From positions 322,345 through 386,344 of the forward strand of contig CAXNJO010000004.1 of NCBI GenBank assembly GCA_964202905.1: 64,000 nt of DNA, read 5' to 3'. Below, one piece after another: positions 37,801 to 44,818 of the stretch (positions are counted from its first letter, which is position 1; every line of letters starts with the position of its first letter). Origin of the DNA: Polyangiales bacterium. GTDB lineage: Bacteria > Myxococcota_A > Polyangia > Polyangiales > JADJQN01. The position numbers and the translations under genes are program-made. The notes beneath the pieces are model-generated. The model had not been told where the DNA came from and ran no database searches. It was given only the letters and a program-made list of their open reading frames with translations.

Positions 37801-40434
37801 TCAGCCGCGGCGCGACCGCCAGAAGGCCGCGAGCCGCGTCCGCGCCGCCAGCATCGTGGGCAGCACGACGACGGCCGCGAGCGTGCACGACACCTCGCCG
37901 GACATCGCGATGCGCCCGAAGGAGCGCAGCGCGAGGTTGTCCGCGAAGAGCAGCGACGCATAGCCGAGGATCGTCGTGAGCGAGCACAGCGCGACGACGC
38001 CCCCGACCGAGCGAACACCCTCCGCGACGTCCTCCGCCGCGAGCTCGGGGCCGTCGGGCACGCGCGCGCGCCGATCGTGCGCCGCGTGCTGGATGCGCTC
38101 GTAGACGTTGATCGAGTACTCGACGCCGAGCCCGAAGGTGAGCGGCAGCGCGACGAAGTTGAGGAAGTTGAGCCGCACGTCGAGCCACGCGGCGCCGCCG
38201 ATCATGAGGGTCACGCCGCTGCAGAGCGCGACGAGGATCGACGCGACCGTCGTCAGCCGCCGCGCGACGACGAACGTGACCGCGATGACGACGAGGAAGG
38301 CGAGGAGCGTCACGCGCGGGCTGTCGCGCTCCATCGAGCGCACCATCTCCGCGAAGATCGTCGCGCGGCTCGCGTTGGGCGCGGGCTGTCCGTCCGCGCC
38401 GCGCACGCCCTCGAGGATGTCGCTGATGCGGAGCAGGTTCTGGCCGCGGCTCTGCGAGATGCGCCGATCGAGCGTGACGAACACCGCCGTCCCGTCGCGG
38501 CCGTCGCGCTCGCGGAAGCGGGTGCGCACGAGGGCGGGGAGGTCCTCGGGCGCGAGCCGACGCAGGTACTCGGGCGGCCGCCACCGCTGCGCGGCCTCGC
38601 GCTCGGCGCCCTCGAGCCGCGGCAGCACACGGTCGAGGTGCGCGCGGATCTCGGCGAGCAGGCGCAGCTTCTCGTCGACCTGCGCGGGCGTGCCGCCGAG
38701 CACGTCGAAGATGGTCTCGACGCGCTCGACGAAGGTGCCGCGCGTCACGCGCCGGTCGCTCGCGACCACCGCGCGCGCGAGGCCCTCGACCTCGGACATG
38801 TCGCTCGCGAGCAGGAGCTGCGGCGAGCCGCGCACCCCGAGCACCGCGTTCGCGCGGAGGCTGAAGCGCCCCGCACCGCGCCGCGTGCTCGACTCCGAGC
38901 GGAGCTTCGCGAAGTCGTACTCCCACGGGTCGCGCAGGTAGCGCGCGAGGGGCCACGCCGCGGCGCCGACGAGGAGCACGACGGCGAGCGCGACCTTGCC
39001 GGTGTGCTGCGTCGCGAGGCGACCGACGAGCGCGGCGACGGGCGCGCGCACGGGCGCGGCGGTCTGCGCTCGACCGCCGCGGCCACGGGCGAAGCGGGCG
39101 GTGAGCCGCTCGACAGCCGTGATCGACGCGGGCATCACGGCGAAGCTCGCGACCCACGACGCGAGCATCCCGACGCCCCCGATGAGGCCGAACTCGCTGA
39201 ACCCGCGGAACGACGTCGCGAGCAGCGCGGCGTACGCGCCGCTCGCCGCGAGCGAGGCGAGCCACGTGCCGGAGCGCGAGGTCTCCGCGGCCTCGAGCAG
39301 CGCCGCCTCGAGGTCGTCCCCGGCCGCGCGCCGCTCGCGGTAGCGCGCGAGGTAGACCATGCCGTAGTTGATGCCGTTGCCCGCGATCAGCGAGCCGAGG
39401 AAGCTCGTCGCCGCGTTGAGGTGCCCGTACGCGCCCATCGCGACGGCGAAGGCCACGCCGCTGCCGATCGTCGCGACCGCGCCGAGGTGCGCGAGCACGA
39501 AGGGCGAGCGGAAGAAGGTGACGAGCACGAGCACGATGAGCGCGAAGGCCGCGATCGACACGACCACGATGTCCGCGACGAGCCCGGCGCGCTCGGCGAT
39601 GGCGTTGGGGATGTCGCCCGCGTACCCGAGCTCGACGCCCGGAAAACGGGCCAGTTCTTCTGCGCCGATGCGCGTGACGGCCGCGTGCAGCCGATCGCCG
39701 CGCGCGTCGCCGAAGCCGCCGCTCGGCGACCGCACGACGAGCACGAACGTGCGCCCGTCCTCCGACTGGAAGTAGCCCGTCGGGAATCGATCGAGCCGCG
39801 CGAGCTCCGCCCGGGCGCGCCGATCGAAGGTCACGATCGCCGACTCGCCGGGGAGCGCTGCGGGCGGGGCGGGCGCGACGTCGGCGCCCGGCACGGCACG
39901 CGCGACGGCCGCCGCGCGCTCGCGGTCCCGCGCTTCACGCGCGTCGCGCAGATCCGCGCACGGATCGTCGAGCTCGAAGTAGCCCGGCATCGCGCGCGCC
40001 CGCGCCCGCTCGAGCTCGCACGAGACGAGCTCGAGATCGACCGGGTCCGCGAAGAGCCAGCGCCAGCGCTCGTAGAAACGCCGCGTCTCGGTGGGCCCAT
40101 GCTCGACGAGGGACACGAGCTCGGTGGGGAGCCGCTTCACGCGGGCCTCGACCGCGTCGATCAACGCCTTGTTTTTCCTCGCGTCGGGCGACTCGACCAC
40201 GACGATGAGCGTCGAGGACGCGCCGCCCCGCCGATCGACGGTGCTGCGGAAACGCCGCGCCGCGGGGCTCTCCGTCGGCAGCAACTCGATGAAGTCGCCG
40301 CGGATCGCGAGCCCGCTCGCGTACGTCCAGCACGAGGCCGCGAACGCGAGCGCGAGGCCGAGCACCCACGCGGGGCGCGCGACCGCGAAGCGCGTGACGG
40401 CGGCGACGACCTGCGCGAATCGCCCAGTATTCAT
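37801..40434 (-). CDS. MMPL / RND-superfamily exporter (two 6-TM bundles with large periplasmic loops)
   Basis: Start at the M of MNTGRFAQVVAAVTRFAVARPAWVLG (cat 40432-40434), overlapping the upstream stop (ATGA). The track ORF carries a 297-aa artefactual N-terminal extension. Hydrophobic clusters lie near both ends. Confidence 0.75.
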   Translation of the reverse strand: MNTGRFAQVVAAVTRFAVARPAWVLGLALAFAASCWTYASGLAIRGDFIELLPTESPAARRFRSTVDRRGGASSTLIVVVESPDARKNKALIDAVEARVKRLPTELVSLVEHGPTETRRFYERWRWLFADPVDLELVSCELERARARAMPGYFELDDPCADLRDAREARDRERAAAVARAVPGADVAPAPPAALPGESAIVTFDRRARAELARLDRFPTGYFQSEDGRTFVLVVRSPSGGFGDARGDRLHAAVTRIGAEELARFPGVELGYAGDIPNAIAERAGLVADIVVVSIAAFALIVLVLVTFFRSPFVLAHLGAVATIGSGVAFAVAMGAYGHLNAATSFLGSLIAGNGINYGMVYLARYRERRAAGDDLEAALLEAAETSRSGTWLASLAASGAYAALLATSFRGFSEFGLIGGVGMLASWVASFAVMPASITAVERLTARFARGRGGRAQTAAPVRAPVAALVGRLATQHTGKVALAVVLLVGAAAWPLARYLRDPWEYDFAKLRSESSTRRGAGRFSLRANAVLGVRGSPQLLLASDMSEVEGLARAVVASDRRVTRGTFVERVETIFDVLGGTPAQVDEKLRLLAEIRAHLDRVLPRLEGAEREAAQRWRPPEYLRRLAPEDLPALVRTRFRERDGRDGTAVFVTLDRRISQSRGQNLLRISDILEGVRGADGQPAPNASRATIFAEMVRSMERDSPRVTLLAFLVVIAVTFVVARRLTTVASILVALCSGVTLMIGGAAWLDVRLNFLNFVALPLTFGLGVEYSINVYERIQHAAHDRRARVPDGPELAAEDVAEGVRSVGGVVALCSLTTILGYASLLFADNLALRSFGRIAMSGEVSCTLAAVVVLPTMLAARTRLAAFWRSRRG

Positions 40435-41585
40435 GGGCGGAGCGCGTCCTCGAGGTCCGCGACGAGCTCGCCCGCGTCCTCCGTGCCGACCGAGAGCCGC
40501 AGCATGTCCGCGGGCACGGGGGACTCCGGCCCCTCGACCGACGCGCGGTGCTCGACGAGACTCTCGGTGCCGCCGAGGCTCGTCGCGCGCTTCCAGAGCC
40601 GCAGGCGACCGAGCGCCGCGAGCGCCGCCTCCGCGCCTCCGGCGACGCGCAGCGAGAGCATGCTGCCGAAACCGCCCCGCATCTGTCGCGACGCGACCTC
40701 GTGCCCCGGGAAGCCGGGCAGGCCCGGGTAGAGCACCTCGACGACCCGCGCATGCCCGCAGAAATGCTCGGCGATCCGCTGCGCGGAGGCGCTCGCGACG
40801 CGCGCGCGGAGCGGCAGCGTGCGCATCCCGCGCAAGAGCAGCCAGGCCTCGAACGGCCCGATCACGGCGCCCTCGAGGGCGCGCACCTCGAGCACCCGCG
40901 CGAAGAGCGCGTCGTCCTCGCGCGCCGCGGTGACGCTGCCCGCGAGCACGTCGCTGTGCCCGTTGAGCGCCTTGGTCGCCGCGTGCACGACGAGGTCCGC
41001 GCCGAGCGCGAGAGGCTGCGTGAAGATCGGCGTCGCGACCGTCGAGTCGACGACGAGCCGCGCGCCCGCCTCGTGCGCGAGCGCGGCGGAGCGCGCGATG
41101 TCGGTGACCGTCCAGACCGGGTTCGCGGGCGTCTCGATCCACACGAGCCGCGTCTGCCCGGGCCGGAGCGCTGCCGCGAGCGCGGCCGGGTCGTGCGCGT
41201 CGGCGAGCGTCACGTCGAGCCCCCAGCGCGCGCCGGGCCCCGTGAGCCAGCGCCGCAGCGCCCAATACATCAGCCGCGGCGCGACGACGTGATCGCCCGG
41301 TGAGAGCGCGCGGAACACCGCCGTGCACGCGGCCATCCCCGAGGCGAAGAGCGCCGTGCGCGCCCCCCCCTCGAGCGCGGTGATGAGCCGCTCCGCGGGC
41401 TCGAACGCGGGGCTCTGATCGCGCGCATACACGCGCCCCGGCGCGACGAGCGCGTTCGCTTCGTCCCGCGCGAACGTGGTCGAGGGGTGGATCGCGGGGA
41501 CGAGCGCCCCCGTCTGCGGATCGATGTCTCCGAGGGCCTGCGCGCAGAGCGTGTCGACGGAGCGGAGCGGGCGGTCGGGCGGCAT
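40431..41585 (-). CDS. Cys/Met-metabolism PLP-dependent enzyme (cystathionine gamma-synthase/lyase family)
   Basis: HAATKALNGHSDVLAG PLP-lysine motif. Start at the M of MPPDRPLRSVD (cat 41583-41585). Confidence 0.8.
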   Translation of the reverse strand: MPPDRPLRSVDTLCAQALGDIDPQTGALVPAIHPSTTFARDEANALVAPGRVYARDQSPAFEPAERLITALEGGARTALFASGMAACTAVFRALSPGDHVVAPRLMYWALRRWLTGPGARWGLDVTLADAHDPAALAAALRPGQTRLVWIETPANPVWTVTDIARSAALAHEAGARLVVDSTVATPIFTQPLALGADLVVHAATKALNGHSDVLAGSVTAAREDDALFARVLEVRALEGAVIGPFEAWLLLRGMRTLPLRARVASASAQRIAEHFCGHARVVEVLYPGLPGFPGHEVASRQMRGGFGSMLSLRVAGGAEAALAALGRLRLWKRATSLGGTESLVEHRASVEGPESPVPADMLRLSVGTEDAGELVADLEDALRP

Positions 41586-41648
41586 GCGCGGCGACGCTAG
41601 CGCGAACCCCCGCGGGACGCGACGGCCACGGGCCACGCCGCGCGCACC

Positions 41649-43226
41649 TCAGCGCGGACGCGCGGCGAGCGTCGCGGGCACGCGCGGCAGGCCGAGTTTC
41701 TTCATGCGGCTCTGCAGGGTCGAGGGCGGCAGCCCGAGCACCTCGGCCGCGCCGCCCGGCCCGTAGATGCGGCCCTCCGTCGCAGCGAGCACGCGGCGGA
41801 TGTGCGCGCGCTGCGCATCGTCGAGCGAGCCGAGCGCCACGGACGCGCCCGGCGTCGCGGTGGGCCCTTCGATCGGCGCGTCGCGCGCGGGGAGGTCGAT
41901 CGTCGCGGCCCCGAGCTCGCGCTCGCGCGTGAGGATCGTCGCGCGCTCGAGCACGTTCGCGAGCTCACGCAGGTTGCCCGGCCAGTCGTGTCCCGCGAGC
42001 TTCTCGAGCGCGTCCTCGCCCACGCGCGTCGGCGCCCTCCCCGTGCGCTTGCCGATCTGCAGGAGCAACGACGCGCAGAGCTCCGGCAGATCCTCGAGCC
42101 GCTCGCGCAGCGGCGGCAGCGCGAGAGGGAACACGTGGAGCCGGTAGTACAGGTCCTCGCGGAAGCGGCCCGCGCCGATGGCGCGGCGCAGATCCACGTG
42201 CGTCGCCGCGAGGATGCGCACGTCGACCTTCACCGTTCGGTCCGCGCCCACGGGCTCGAACGAGCCCTCCTGCAAGACGCGCAGCAGCTTCGCCTGCAGC
42301 TCGAACGGGAGCTCGCCGATCTCGTCGAGCAGCAGCGTGCCGCCGTTCGCCATCGCGAAGCGGCCCGCGCGATCGCGCGTCGCGCCGGTGAACGAGCCCT
42401 TCGTGTGGCCGAAGAGCTCGCTCTCGAGCAGCCCGGGCGGGATGGCCGCGCAGTTGATCGTGACGAAGGGCTGCTCGGCGCGCGGGCTCCACGTGTGCAG
42501 CGCGCGCGCGAGCCGCTCCTTGCCCGTGCCCGTCTCGCCGAGGATGAGCACCGGCGTGCTGGTGGCCGCGACCTGCCGCGCGCGCCGCGCGATCTCGCGG
42601 ACCGCCGCGCTGCGGCTCGTCTCGAGGACGCCCTCGTCGTCGCCGCTCAGCGCCGCCTCGAGCAGTTGCGCGCGCTCGTGGTCGCGCCGGTGCAGCCGCG
42701 CGAGCAGGGCACGCTGCTCGGCGTTGGCGATCGCGAGCGCGAGGATCTGCGCATAGACCTCGGCGAGGTCGACGACGCCCTGCGGGTACGACTCGCAGCG
42801 CGTGCGATCGAGCGCGAGCACCCCGAACGCGCGCTCCCCCGCGACGAGGGGCACGACCATGCACGAGTGCCCGGGCGGCAGATCGAGCACCCCGTCGAAC
42901 GGGTCACCGTCCCCGTGCGCGTGGTCCTGCTCGGTGAACGCGCGCGCGCGCCGCGTCTCGAGCGCCTCGCGGATCGTCGGAAACCGGTCGAGCGCGAGCG
43001 TGTGCCCGCGCAGACGCGGCCCGGCGAGAGAGCCGCGCGCCATCCGCACGACGAGCGTGTCGCCCTCGAGCGCGAAGATCGTCGCGAGATCGTAGGGCGC
43101 GAGGCGCCCGAGCCAGTCGAGCCCGCGCCGCAGCAGATCGTCGAGCCCGTCGTCGACCCCGGCGATGCGCGCGAGGTCTCGCAGGTCGCGGGTCAGGTCC
43201 ATCGGAGCGCGCAACGCGTTCGGCAT
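41649..43226 (-). CDS. sigma-54-dependent transcriptional activator with an N-terminal GAF domain (bacterial enhancer-binding protein)
   Basis: AAA+ core ILGETGTGKERLARALH, GAFTGA-type motif GHTKGSFTGA, ESELFGH, and a C-terminal HTH. The start may be 43226 or 43202. Confidence 0.85.
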   Translation of the reverse strand: MPNALRAPMDLTRDLRDLARIAGVDDGLDDLLRRGLDWLGRLAPYDLATIFALEGDTLVVRMARGSLAGPRLRGHTLALDRFPTIREALETRRARAFTEQDHAHGDGDPFDGVLDLPPGHSCMVVPLVAGERAFGVLALDRTRCESYPQGVVDLAEVYAQILALAIANAEQRALLARLHRRDHERAQLLEAALSGDDEGVLETSRSAAVREIARRARQVAATSTPVLILGETGTGKERLARALHTWSPRAEQPFVTINCAAIPPGLLESELFGHTKGSFTGATRDRAGRFAMANGGTLLLDEIGELPFELQAKLLRVLQEGSFEPVGADRTVKVDVRILAATHVDLRRAIGAGRFREDLYYRLHVFPLALPPLRERLEDLPELCASLLLQIGKRTGRAPTRVGEDALEKLAGHDWPGNLRELANVLERATILTRERELGAATIDLPARDAPIEGPTATPGASVALGSLDDAQRAHIRRVLAATEGRIYGPGGAAEVLGLPPSTLQSRMKKLGLPRVPATLAARPR

Positions 43227-43241
43227 CCGCGGGTTCTAGGG

Positions 43242-43297
43242 CACCGACATCTCACTGCCAAGACACCGGCATGTCGGTGACCACCGGAATATCGGTG
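43242..43297. promoter_or_regulatory. Candidate upstream activator sequences: inverted repeats CACCGACAT-N20-ATGTCGGTG and CACCG-gaatat-CGGTG
   Basis: Perfect reverse-complement arms, located 55-110 bp upstream of the -24/-12 element. Confidence 0.35.
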
Positions 43298-43352
43298 AGG
43301 CTGGGGGCAGAGGATCGCAGAAAATCCGCGTCAACCACGACGGGCCGTTGCC

Positions 43353-43368
43353 TGGCACGCCATCTGCT
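43353..43368 (+). promoter_or_regulatory. sigma-54 (-24/-12) promoter TGGCACGCCATCTGCT upstream of ahpC
   Basis: GG and GC are separated by 10 nt. It fits TGGCACG-N4-TTGCW with one mismatch. It lies ~58 nt upstream of the ahpC ATG and next to a divergent enhancer-binding protein gene. Confidence 0.55.
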
Positions 43369-43425
43369 CTTACACAGCGCGGCGCCGCGACCCGCACAGC
43401 GGCCACCCCCCAGAGGAGAACACCC

Positions 43426-43959
43426 ATGCTCACCGTCGGCTACAAGCTCCCCGCCTTCACCGTCACGGCCACCGTCAGCACCGAGAAGGGCAAGGAGTTC
43501 AAGGACATCTCGAACACCGACTACGCGGGGAAGTGGCTCATCCTCTACTTCTATCCGAAGGACTTCACCTTCATCTGCCCGACCGAGATCGTCGATTTCG
43601 ACAAGGCGCAGAAGGACTTCGCCGAGCGCGACGCGGTCGTCGTCGGCGGCAGCACGGACAACCCCTTCTCGCACCTCGCCTGGCGCAACAGCCACGCGGA
43701 TCTGAAGAACATCACGCACCCGCTCATCCACCTCACGCCGAAGCTCGGCGCCGAGCTCGGCGTCATCCACCCGGACGAGGGCGTCGCGCTCCGCACGACG
43801 TTCATCATCGACCCGAACGGCGTGATCCGCTCGGCCGTCGCGTACGATCTGAACGTCGGCCGCAGCGTCAAGGAGACCCTGCGCACGCTCGACGCGCTGC
43901 AGACGGACGAGCTCTGCCCCTGCAACTGGCAGAAGGGCGAGAATACGCTCGGCAAGTGA
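43426..43959 (+). CDS. ahpC: peroxiredoxin AhpC (alkyl hydroperoxide reductase C, 2-Cys)
   Basis: MLTVGYKLPAFTVTA...WLILYFYPKDFTFICPTEI; the resolving Cys is in TDELCPCNW. RBS AGAGGAGAA. Confidence 0.9.
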   Translation: MLTVGYKLPAFTVTATVSTEKGKEFKDISNTDYAGKWLILYFYPKDFTFICPTEIVDFDKAQKDFAERDAVVVGGSTDNPFSHLAWRNSHADLKNITHPLIHLTPKLGAELGVIHPDEGVALRTTFIIDPNGVIRSAVAYDLNVGRSVKETLRTLDALQTDELCPCNWQKGENTLGK

Positions 43960-44057
43960 TCGCACGGCGCGCCCCTCCCACGGGGAGGGGCCGCGCACGC
44001 TTCGGCTTCGTCTCCCTTCACGCCCCCCGCTCACGCCCCGCCACGAGAGGAGTCCCC

Positions 44058-44585
44058 ATGACCCAGGCCATCGACGCGCTCCGCGACGCCCTGCCCGACG
44101 CTGCCCGCGACCTGAAGATCAACCTCGGGACCATGCTCGCCCTCGAGTCGCTGACGCCCGCGCAGCGCTGGGGTTCGGCCCTCGCCTGCGCGATCACCGC
44201 GGGGCACGCGGGGCTCCGCGACGCCCTCGCCGCCGACGCGCGCGCCGCGGGCGTGTCCGAGGAGGTGCTCGACGACGCCCGCGCAGCGGCCGCGATCATG
44301 GCGATGAACAACGTCGTCTACCGCGCGCGCCACATGCTCGGCGGCGCGTACGAGGCGCGCCCGATCCGGCTCCGCATGCAGCGCATCGGCGCCGTGAAGA
44401 CGAACAAACTCGACTTCGAGTTGATGTGCCTCGCCGCGAGCGCCATCGGCGGCTGCGAGGTCTGCCTCCAGGCCCACGAGAAGGTCGTGCGCGAGGGCGG
44501 ACTCTCCGAAGACGTCGTGTTCGACGCCGTGCGCATCGCGGCCGTCGTGAAGGGCGTCGCCGTCGGGCTTGCGCTCGGCGCTTGA
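44058..44585 (+). CDS. ahpD: alkylhydroperoxidase AhpD family (carboxymuconolactone decarboxylase fold)
   Basis: Internal start MTQAIDALRD with a GAGAGGAG RBS. ELMCLAASAIGGCEVCLQAHE catalytic CxxC-type motif. Confidence 0.8.
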   Translation: MTQAIDALRDALPDAARDLKINLGTMLALESLTPAQRWGSALACAITAGHAGLRDALAADARAAGVSEEVLDDARAAAAIMAMNNVVYRARHMLGGAYEARPIRLRMQRIGAVKTNKLDFELMCLAASAIGGCEVCLQAHEKVVREGGLSEDVVFDAVRIAAVVKGVAVGLALGA

Positions 44586-44635: not shown

Positions 44636-44818
44636 GTGAGCGAGACCTACGTCAACGTCGAGATCGATGCCGAAGGCGAGAAGCGCATCCAGGCCGAGGA
44701 GCAGACCTGGACGGGCGGGAAGCTGATCCTGCTCGGGGTCATCACGCTGCCCATCTGCCTCGCGATCCTCTTCGCCCTCGCGAACGCCACGACCTGGATG
44801 GGCACGCACCAGCCCTGA
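44636..44818 (+). CDS. small hypothetical membrane protein (60 aa, one TM)
   Basis: GTG at 44636 with GAGGAG at -8. VSETYVNVEIDAEGEKRIQAEEQTWTGGKLILLGVITLPICLAILFALANATTWMGTHQP. Confidence 0.4.
   Translation: MSETYVNVEIDAEGEKRIQAEEQTWTGGKLILLGVITLPICLAILFALANATTWMGTHQP

Follow-up and report, generated by a model that had tools for sequence, protein, structure and literature searches.

A probable PexR-type sigma-54 peroxide stress switch opposite ahpC-ahpD in a Polyangiales bacterium

What kind of peroxide control operates when the regulator gene opposite ahpC-ahpD encodes neither an OxyR nor a PerR protein, but an enhancer-binding protein (EBP) of the sigma-54-dependent type? The question is raised by a stretch of 64,000 nucleotides from a Polyangiales bacterium (assembly GCA_964202905.1, contig CAXNJO010000004.1, positions 322,345 to 386,344 of the forward strand), which we call the window and whose G+C content is 72%. 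A preliminary description of this DNA had proposed that an activator made of GAF, AAA+ and helix-turn-helix (HTH) domains acts from CACCG palindromes on a sigma-54 promoter of the divergent ahpC-ahpD genes. We think that the locus is a PexR-type sigma-54 peroxide stress switch for ahpCD, with a probability of roughly 0.9, and that its regulator gene is better named pexR than norR, fhlA or a generic 'sigma-54 interacting regulator'. The coordinates of the features are collected in Table 1.

The PexR system has been described in Myxococcus xanthus by Bastida-Martinez et al. (Nucleic Acids Res, 31 Dec 2025; PMC12754779). In that organism PexR is MXAN_1565 and its targets are ahpC-ahpD-dps and katB-ankB. 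The protein binds CACCG-n6-CGGTG repeats arranged in tandem ahead of katB and ahpC, as determined by chromatin immunoprecipitation with quantitative PCR (ChIP-qPCR) and electrophoretic mobility shift assay (EMSA), and the sigma-54 promoters were validated by 5' rapid amplification of cDNA ends (5'-RACE) and by mutation of the -24/-12 elements (PMC12754779). The ATPase is autoinhibited by the GAF domain, and inductively coupled plasma mass spectrometry (ICP-MS) and ligand mutants revealed a Zn2+/Fe2+ site formed by H102, H120, C122 and D140, from which the metal is released by H2O2 (PMC12754779). Besides, ahpC has a promoter of the sigma-A type, overlapping with the repeats, which PexR represses (PMC12754779), a second function that the preliminary description had not foreseen. 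Most Myxococcota have divergent pexR and ahpC genes, with three sites and both promoters in an intergenic region typically shorter than 300 bp, and leaderless pexR transcripts have been proposed for myxobacteria (PMC12754779). An activator that drives a sigma-54 ahpCD promoter from CACCG palindromes is therefore a mechanism shown for M. xanthus PexR, and the window passes the sequence tests of that family. The regulatory logic had rightly been called distinct, but it is not new, as the family, its mechanism and its phylum-wide conservation are already in print. The GAF domain had been taken for a sensor of a small ligand; in M. xanthus it instead binds Zn/Fe, senses H2O2 and autoinhibits the ATPase (PMC12754779).

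Regarding the protein, Pfam profiles place GAF_2/GAF_3 at the N-terminus (GAF_3 at residues 28-168), followed by Sigma54_activat at 205-368 (1e-69), AAA_lid_14 at 374-444 and HTH_8 at 468-511. This is the domain order of PexR, and these domains and the gene layout agree with the GAF-AAA+-HTH activator that had been proposed. NCBI lists the identical protein (P0001) with 517 aa and places its start at M9 (position 43202). The residues H102, H120, C122 and D140 of PexR have the same numbers in the window protein and in seven orthologs, where they are invariant, and each of 84 family loci keeps all four. The Walker A (GETGTGKE) and Walker B (LLLDE) motifs are present, and the sigma-54 contact loop reads GSFTGA, with its Thr kept. 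This form of the loop is common to 14 homologs, including the Sandaracinaceae protein P0004, whose locus has a strong -24/-12 promoter.

Profile searches point first to another regulator, NorR, and the protein could then be a NO sensor whose GAF non-haem iron binds NO, with ahpCD as a defence against peroxynitrite and nitrosative stress. NorR (NF003451) is the best NCBIfam model and matches end-to-end, but its 367.8 bits do not reach the curated threshold of 476. The window protein and E. coli NorR are 36-40% identical, and NorR D96, D99, H111, C113 and D131 align with D108, D111, H120, C122 and D140. The non-haem iron ligands of NorR are reportedly R75, D96, D99, C113 and D131; R75 aligns with Thr84, so that the full ligand set is not present. 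AhpC is said to have peroxynitrite reductase activity, which would suit such a defence, but the divergent targets are ahpC and ahpD and not norVW, hmp or norB. Moreover, in the alignment H102 lies within a DHAHGDG insertion that E. coli NorR does not have, and the repeats are of the PexR type. The authors of the PexR study consider that PexR might also sense NO, although in M. xanthus D108A and D111A had a negligible effect whereas H102A and H120A were constitutive (PMC12754779). Membership in NorR was rejected on the sub-threshold score, the replacement of R75 by Thr84 and targets that are not NO reductases, and we find NO sensing very unlikely to be the role of this protein. The NorR-norVW system of E. 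coli is still a useful comparison. Both regulators are group III EBPs with a metal-binding autoinhibitory GAF domain and a divergent target operon, and in both cases three sites in tandem precede the sigma-54 promoter by a similar distance. They differ in the NO signal, in the sequence of the DNA site, in the H102 insertion, in R75, which is not conserved in the window, and in the NO reductase target.

The DNA between the two divergent genes leads back to PexR. The intergenic region has 199 bp and contains three tandem 16-bp units of the CACCG-N6-CGGTG type (R1, R2 and R3), with spacings of 22 and 18 bp between their starts. Exact CACCG-N6-CGGTG occurs twice in the 64 kb, both times here, against 0.27 occurrences expected, and two exact matches were reached by only 4 of 100 shuffles. 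No further exact match was found in the window besides R2 and R3, and no second PexR target there. The CAGTG/CACTG form of the 3' half-site, to which R1 belongs, recurs across many family loci. One long and one short palindrome had been described previously. The CACCG half-sites are real and were located (CACCGACAT at 43242-50 and ATGTCGGTG at 43271-79, and CACCGGAATATCGGTG as R3), but the layout is that of three 16-bp units. The long inverted repeat CACCGACAT...ATGTCGGTG is a by-product of pairing the 5' half of R1 with the 3' half of R2, and the perfect repeat R2 had been overlooked.

Downstream of the repeats lies the predicted sigma-54 promoter of ahpC, TGGCACGCCATCTGCT, at the position given by the preliminary description, with GG and GC 10 nt apart and its last base 58 nt from the ahpC ATG. 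It scores 11/12, starts 111 nt from the start of R1 and is the sole match to TGGCAC-N5-TTGCW at no more than one mismatch in the window. Transcription of ahpC is predicted to start near 43379, which would leave a 5' untranslated region of about 47 nt, and a ribosome-binding site, GAGGAG, is found at 43413-18, 7 nt before the ATG. As judged from sequence, the decisive support for promoter and repeats is their position and their conservation in orthologous loci.

That conservation was studied in a comparative survey. More than 100 cluster representatives are 65-86% identical to the window regulator, and those that carry a name are almost all from Myxococcota, the sources being Myxococcus, Corallococcus, Cystobacter, Archangium, Hyalangium, Pyxidicoccus and Sandaracinaceae. 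MAGs (metagenome-assembled genomes) of Sandaracinaceae and Myxococcota are the nearest of the named relatives, and the window resembles DNA of a Sandaracinaceae-like myxobacterium. Identity amounts to 75% with Sandaracinaceae P0004 and to 66%, over 98% of the query, with Myxococcus P0094 (WP_141258554); the latter value falls inside the range published for M. xanthus PexR orthologs (47-98% at ≥90% coverage). A search of genome contigs with the single protein gave one ortholog (locus L001) and 27 unrelated activators, which were kept as negative controls, and an alignment of the GAF domain only was needed to draw orthologs from metagenomes, where it yielded 80 more loci. The counts that follow refer to those 70 unique family loci for which 250 bp or more of upstream sequence were available, to 23 loci of unrelated EBPs and to 60 coding controls. 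A divergent ahpC within 700 bp is present in 59 of the family loci. At least one repeat, with up to one mismatch, was found within 250 bp in 62 of them, compared to 1 unrelated activator locus and 16 coding controls; two or more repeats were found in 40, 1 and 0, respectively.

At the level of single loci, the Myxococcus ortholog (L029) stands opposite ahpC-ahpD-ferritin/dps, the arrangement described for MXAN_1565. The ortholog in a Myxococcota MAG (L001, 71% identity) is opposite dps-ahpC, and that in a Sandaracinaceae MAG (L032, 75%) is opposite ahpC. A relative with 86% identity has the whole neighbourhood of the window: an AMP-binding enzyme, an epimerase, a 60-aa open reading frame (ORF), ahpD and ahpC opposite the regulator and a Cys/Met pyridoxal phosphate (PLP) enzyme. 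In the alignment of ten intergenic regions, Myxococcus included, the invariant positions are ACCG of R1, CACCG of R2, CACC of R3, and TGGCACG and TGC of the promoter. The window promoter aligns with the Myxococcus promoter TGGCACGGTGACTGCT, of the experimentally validated type, and the repeats align column for column. The distance between the start of R1 and the promoter is 110 nt in Myxococcus. Both a scored repeat and a strong promoter are available for 24 loci, and in 11 of these the distance is 109-112 nt. The raw sequence and the metagenomic loci independently confirm that repeats, promoter and metal ligands travel together.

The PexR operons themselves vary in gene order, which is dps-ahpC in L001 (3220-3697, minus strand), ahpC-ahpD-dps in Myxococcus L029 (2745-3221, minus strand), ahpC alone in L032 and ahpC-ahpD-orf60 in the window. 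In some ten family loci whose upstream sequence is long enough, pexR has no neighbouring ahpC (e.g., L046, L050, L052, L090, L108 and L111).

These data also bear on the idea that the true target of the activator is the downstream Cys/Met PLP enzyme gene, or a distant gene, and that the adjacency to ahpCD is incidental. The PLP gene follows pexR closely on the same strand, and the two genes are also neighbours in the 86%-identical relative, but not in the remaining family loci. The divergent ahpC is the common partner of the family, repeats and promoter face ahpC, and the window has no other exact repeat. We think that the probability of this explanation is practically negligible.

The state of the sigma-54 contact loop gives a further line of evidence for the PexR assignment. 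Promoters were scored by a scan anchored on GG/GC, in which 10 or more counted as strong and 8-9 as weak. Among 36 loci with an intact GxFTGA loop, a -24/-12 element upstream of ahpC was strong in 21, weak in 10 and not found in 5. Where the loop is degenerate or deleted (15 loci) there was no strong element, three weak ones at inconsistent positions and none in 12. Because loop state and -24/-12 promoter co-vary, the activator is tied to the promoter independently of experiments. The window locus belongs to the intact-loop, canonical class. Some PexR loci in which the GxFTGA loop is intact (L033, L099, L051, L038 and L043) have -24/-12-like elements at the expected position with GA instead of GC at -12 (TGGCCCGAATCTCGAT, TGGCCCAGCTCTTGAT, TGGCACGCCGCCTGAA), and the anchored scan missed them.

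The loci with altered loops form a sub-lineage. The contact-loop Thr is lost in the PexR homologs of L056, L060, L064-L067, L071, L073, L074 (3474-5018), L076 and L084, and also in L081, L091, L092 and L105-L107. The loop-degenerate homologs share 58-61% identity with the window protein, and the named members come from MAGs listed at NCBI as 'Myxococcaceae bacterium'. Their loops read GAFAGA, GAFADA or GALPGV or are deleted, while neither the four metal ligands nor the divergent ahpC-ahpD have been lost. No GG-N10-GC promoter was found in the ahpC upstream regions of this sub-lineage, which contain a pair of repeats at a spacing of 44 bp, together with a conserved GATTTGnTTGCnnTTTGG...GCATCAA block. 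We suggest that it may be a sigma-54-independent form of PexR; such a sub-lineage is not mentioned in the published work (PMC12754779).

Could the window locus work in this manner as well, with PexR acting on a sigma-A promoter and without sigma-54? It may be how the GAFAGA sub-lineage functions, with no contact-loop Thr and no -24/-12 promoter, and PexR does repress a sigma-A promoter in M. xanthus. In addition, chance alone would give 0.67 matches to the -24/-12 motif in a window of this size, and a sigma-70-like pair, TTGCCT-N17-TACACA (7/12; 43348-43376, plus strand), overlaps the sigma-54 site. In the Sandaracinaceae locus L032 the same place holds TTGCCT-N17-TATGAG (8/12). The overlapping pair may be a coincidence, as TGGCA resembles TTGACA, or an overlapping housekeeping promoter. 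Against sigma-54 independence, the window protein keeps Thr, Walker A and Walker B, and its promoter is canonical, keeps the conserved spacing to R1 and can be aligned with the Myxococcus promoter of the validated type; furthermore, no sigma-A match of at least 8/12 was found over the repeats, by a scan that also misses the Myxococcus one. In our opinion, sigma-54-independent control is extremely unlikely here. On the side of pexR, the best relaxed -35/-10 match of the intergenic region (TTGGCA-N17-TAGAAC, 9/12) overlaps R1, and it was not reported by the strict promoter scan. Because its -10 element ends 6 nt before the ATG, a pexR mRNA made from this candidate would be leaderless.

Several points weigh against assigning the locus to PexR and should be considered together. 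Myxococcus P0094 was matched to MXAN_1565 of strain DK1622 by gene arrangement and not residue by residue. The loop of the window regulator is GSFTGA rather than GAFTGA and the -12 element is CTGC rather than TTGC, although both variants recur in relatives with strong promoters. A scan for sigma-54 promoters, as the preliminary description had suggested, does return a match at the proposed site, but by itself that match is at the level of chance (1 in 64 kb against the expectation given above). The sigma-A ahpC promoter of the M. xanthus model was not located by the strict scan or, at 8/12 or better over the repeats, by the relaxed one, which fails on the validated Myxococcus promoter too, and rpoN was not found within the window. 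Finally, while gene content, domains, ligand residues, repeats, promoter, geometry and conservation are established here from sequence, DNA binding, sigma-54 dependence, metal release on H2O2 and repressor function are taken by analogy from M. xanthus. Peroxide responsiveness, autoregulation and any repressor role in this organism, and with them all function at the locus, are thus deduced.

In a direct comparison, the window shares with M. xanthus the GAF-AAA+-HTH regulator with four ligands at the same numbers, the divergent pexR and ahpC less than 300 bp apart, three tandem repeats (spacings of 22/18 bp in the window and 24/18 bp in Myxococcus) and a TGGCACG-N4-CTGCT promoter about 110 nt after R1. 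Apart from the 66% identity and the loop, the differences concern the repeats and the gene content. R2 and R3 are perfect palindromes, like the three perfect repeats of the M. xanthus katB site, whereas the M. xanthus ahpC repeats are 3'-degenerate. There is no dps after ahpD but a 60-aa membrane ORF, a PLP gene follows pexR, and no sigma-A-type ahpC promoter was recognised by the scan mentioned above. The genes katB, ccp and dps were not found in the 64-kb window.

Taking M. xanthus as the model, the switch would operate as follows. In the resting state, PexR dimers would occupy R1-R3 (43242-43297), in the region shared with ahpC, and the GAF domain would hold Zn2+/Fe2+ through its four ligands and keep the AAA+ ATPase autoinhibited. 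H2O2, and probably an organic hydroperoxide such as tert-butyl hydroperoxide (tBuOOH), would cause loss of the metal. The ATPase would then assemble and remodel the closed complex of sigma-54 RNA polymerase at TGGCACGCCATCTGCT, and transcription would proceed from the predicted start through ahpC, ahpD and probably orf60.

Table 1. Features of the pexR-ahpC locus, in positions of the window
Feature	Position	Strand	Description
PLP enzyme gene	40431-41636	minus	Cys_Met_Meta_PP (cystathionine gamma-synthase/lyase-like, 1e-96); 12 bp after pexR stop
pexR	41649-43226	minus	GAF / sigma-54 AAA+ (GSFTGA loop) / HTH_8 enhancer-binding protein, 525 aa
Candidate sigma-A-type pexR promoter	43233-43261	minus	TTGGCA (43261-43256) - N17 - TAGAAC (43238-43233)
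R1	43242-43257		Pseudopalindrome CACCGACATCTCACTG; 5' half perfect; 3' half CACTG, 2 mismatches
R2	43264-43279		Perfect CACCGGCATGTCGGTG; exact match; CACCG invariant in alignment
R3	43282-43297		Perfect CACCGGAATATCGGTG; exact match, 18 bp after R2; CACC invariant in alignment
Predicted sigma-54 promoter of ahpC	43353-43368	plus	TGGCACGCCATCTGCT, TGGCACG-CCAT-CTGCT; -24 GG 43354-55, -12 GC 43366-67
ahpC	43426-43959	plus	2-Cys peroxiredoxin, 177 aa; Pfam AhpC-TSA 4e-30
Hairpin	43967-43996	plus	13-bp GC-rich stem GCGCGCCCCUCCC-ACG-GGGAGGGGCCGCGC, directly after ahpC stop
ahpD	44058-44585	plus	Alkylhydroperoxidase, CMD family, 175 aa, CEVC redox motif; Pfam CMD 1e-12
orf60	44636-44818	plus	60-aa predicted membrane protein VSETYVNVEIDAEGEKRIQAEEQTWTGGKLILLGVITLPICLAILFALANATTWMGTHQP, 50 nt after ahpD, own GAGGAG site

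The target genes have the features expected of a peroxidase pair. From its sequence, AhpC is of the mycobacterial type that is partnered by AhpD, with C51 in FTFICPTE and C164 and C166 in CPCNW, and it is 63% identical to Myxococcus AhpC. AhpD is 53% identical to its Myxococcus counterpart and scores 167 bits with TIGR00777 ahpD, below the cut-off of 192. The spacer between both genes has 98 nt and contains a hairpin that lacks a clean U-tract; taken as a whole, the spacer is no more stable than shuffled sequences when folded (z = -0.17), and the hairpin may be an intercistronic stabiliser or an attenuator. Rfam matched no RNA family anywhere in the window.

The product of orf60 has one hydrophobic segment and no family match in Pfam and NCBIfam profile searches. 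At the corresponding site the 86%-identical relative also has a called gene of 60 aa, and a search of other PexR loci did not find orf60, which probably closes the ahpCD operon. The PLP enzyme gene may be co-transcribed with pexR, an adjacency that is shared with the 86%-identical relative only. A more far-reaching proposal can be built on these neighbours, namely that ahpC-ahpD-orf60 depends wholly on PexR and sigma-54 without a housekeeping promoter, that pexR and the PLP gene are co-transcribed and that orf60 encodes a new accessory of AhpCD. Sole dependence on PexR and sigma-54 is suggested because R2 and R3 are perfect, closest to the katB site, and no sigma-A promoter is recognisable. 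We regard the proposal as unlikely; if true, co-transcription of pexR with the PLP gene would link the sensing of peroxide with the metabolism of cysteine or H2S.

With respect to the classical regulators, the expected output is the same, a peroxide-induced ahpC that often lies divergent from its regulator gene, and PerR also senses through a metal centre. OxyR, a LysR-type protein with a Cys redox switch, and PerR, a Fur-type repressor, nevertheless work at sigma-70 promoters and have no ATPase, whereas the window encodes an AAA+ activator that would require sigma-54. PexR stands beside OxyR and PerR as a third kind of peroxide regulator in bacteria, and the window adds an example from an uncultured lineage, with an ahpCD operon that is worth flagging in annotation as peroxide-inducible. 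In our opinion, the most useful new item lies outside the window and outweighs the locus itself: the PexR sub-lineage that appears to lack the sigma-54 contact residue as well as the promoter and that may be independent of sigma-54.

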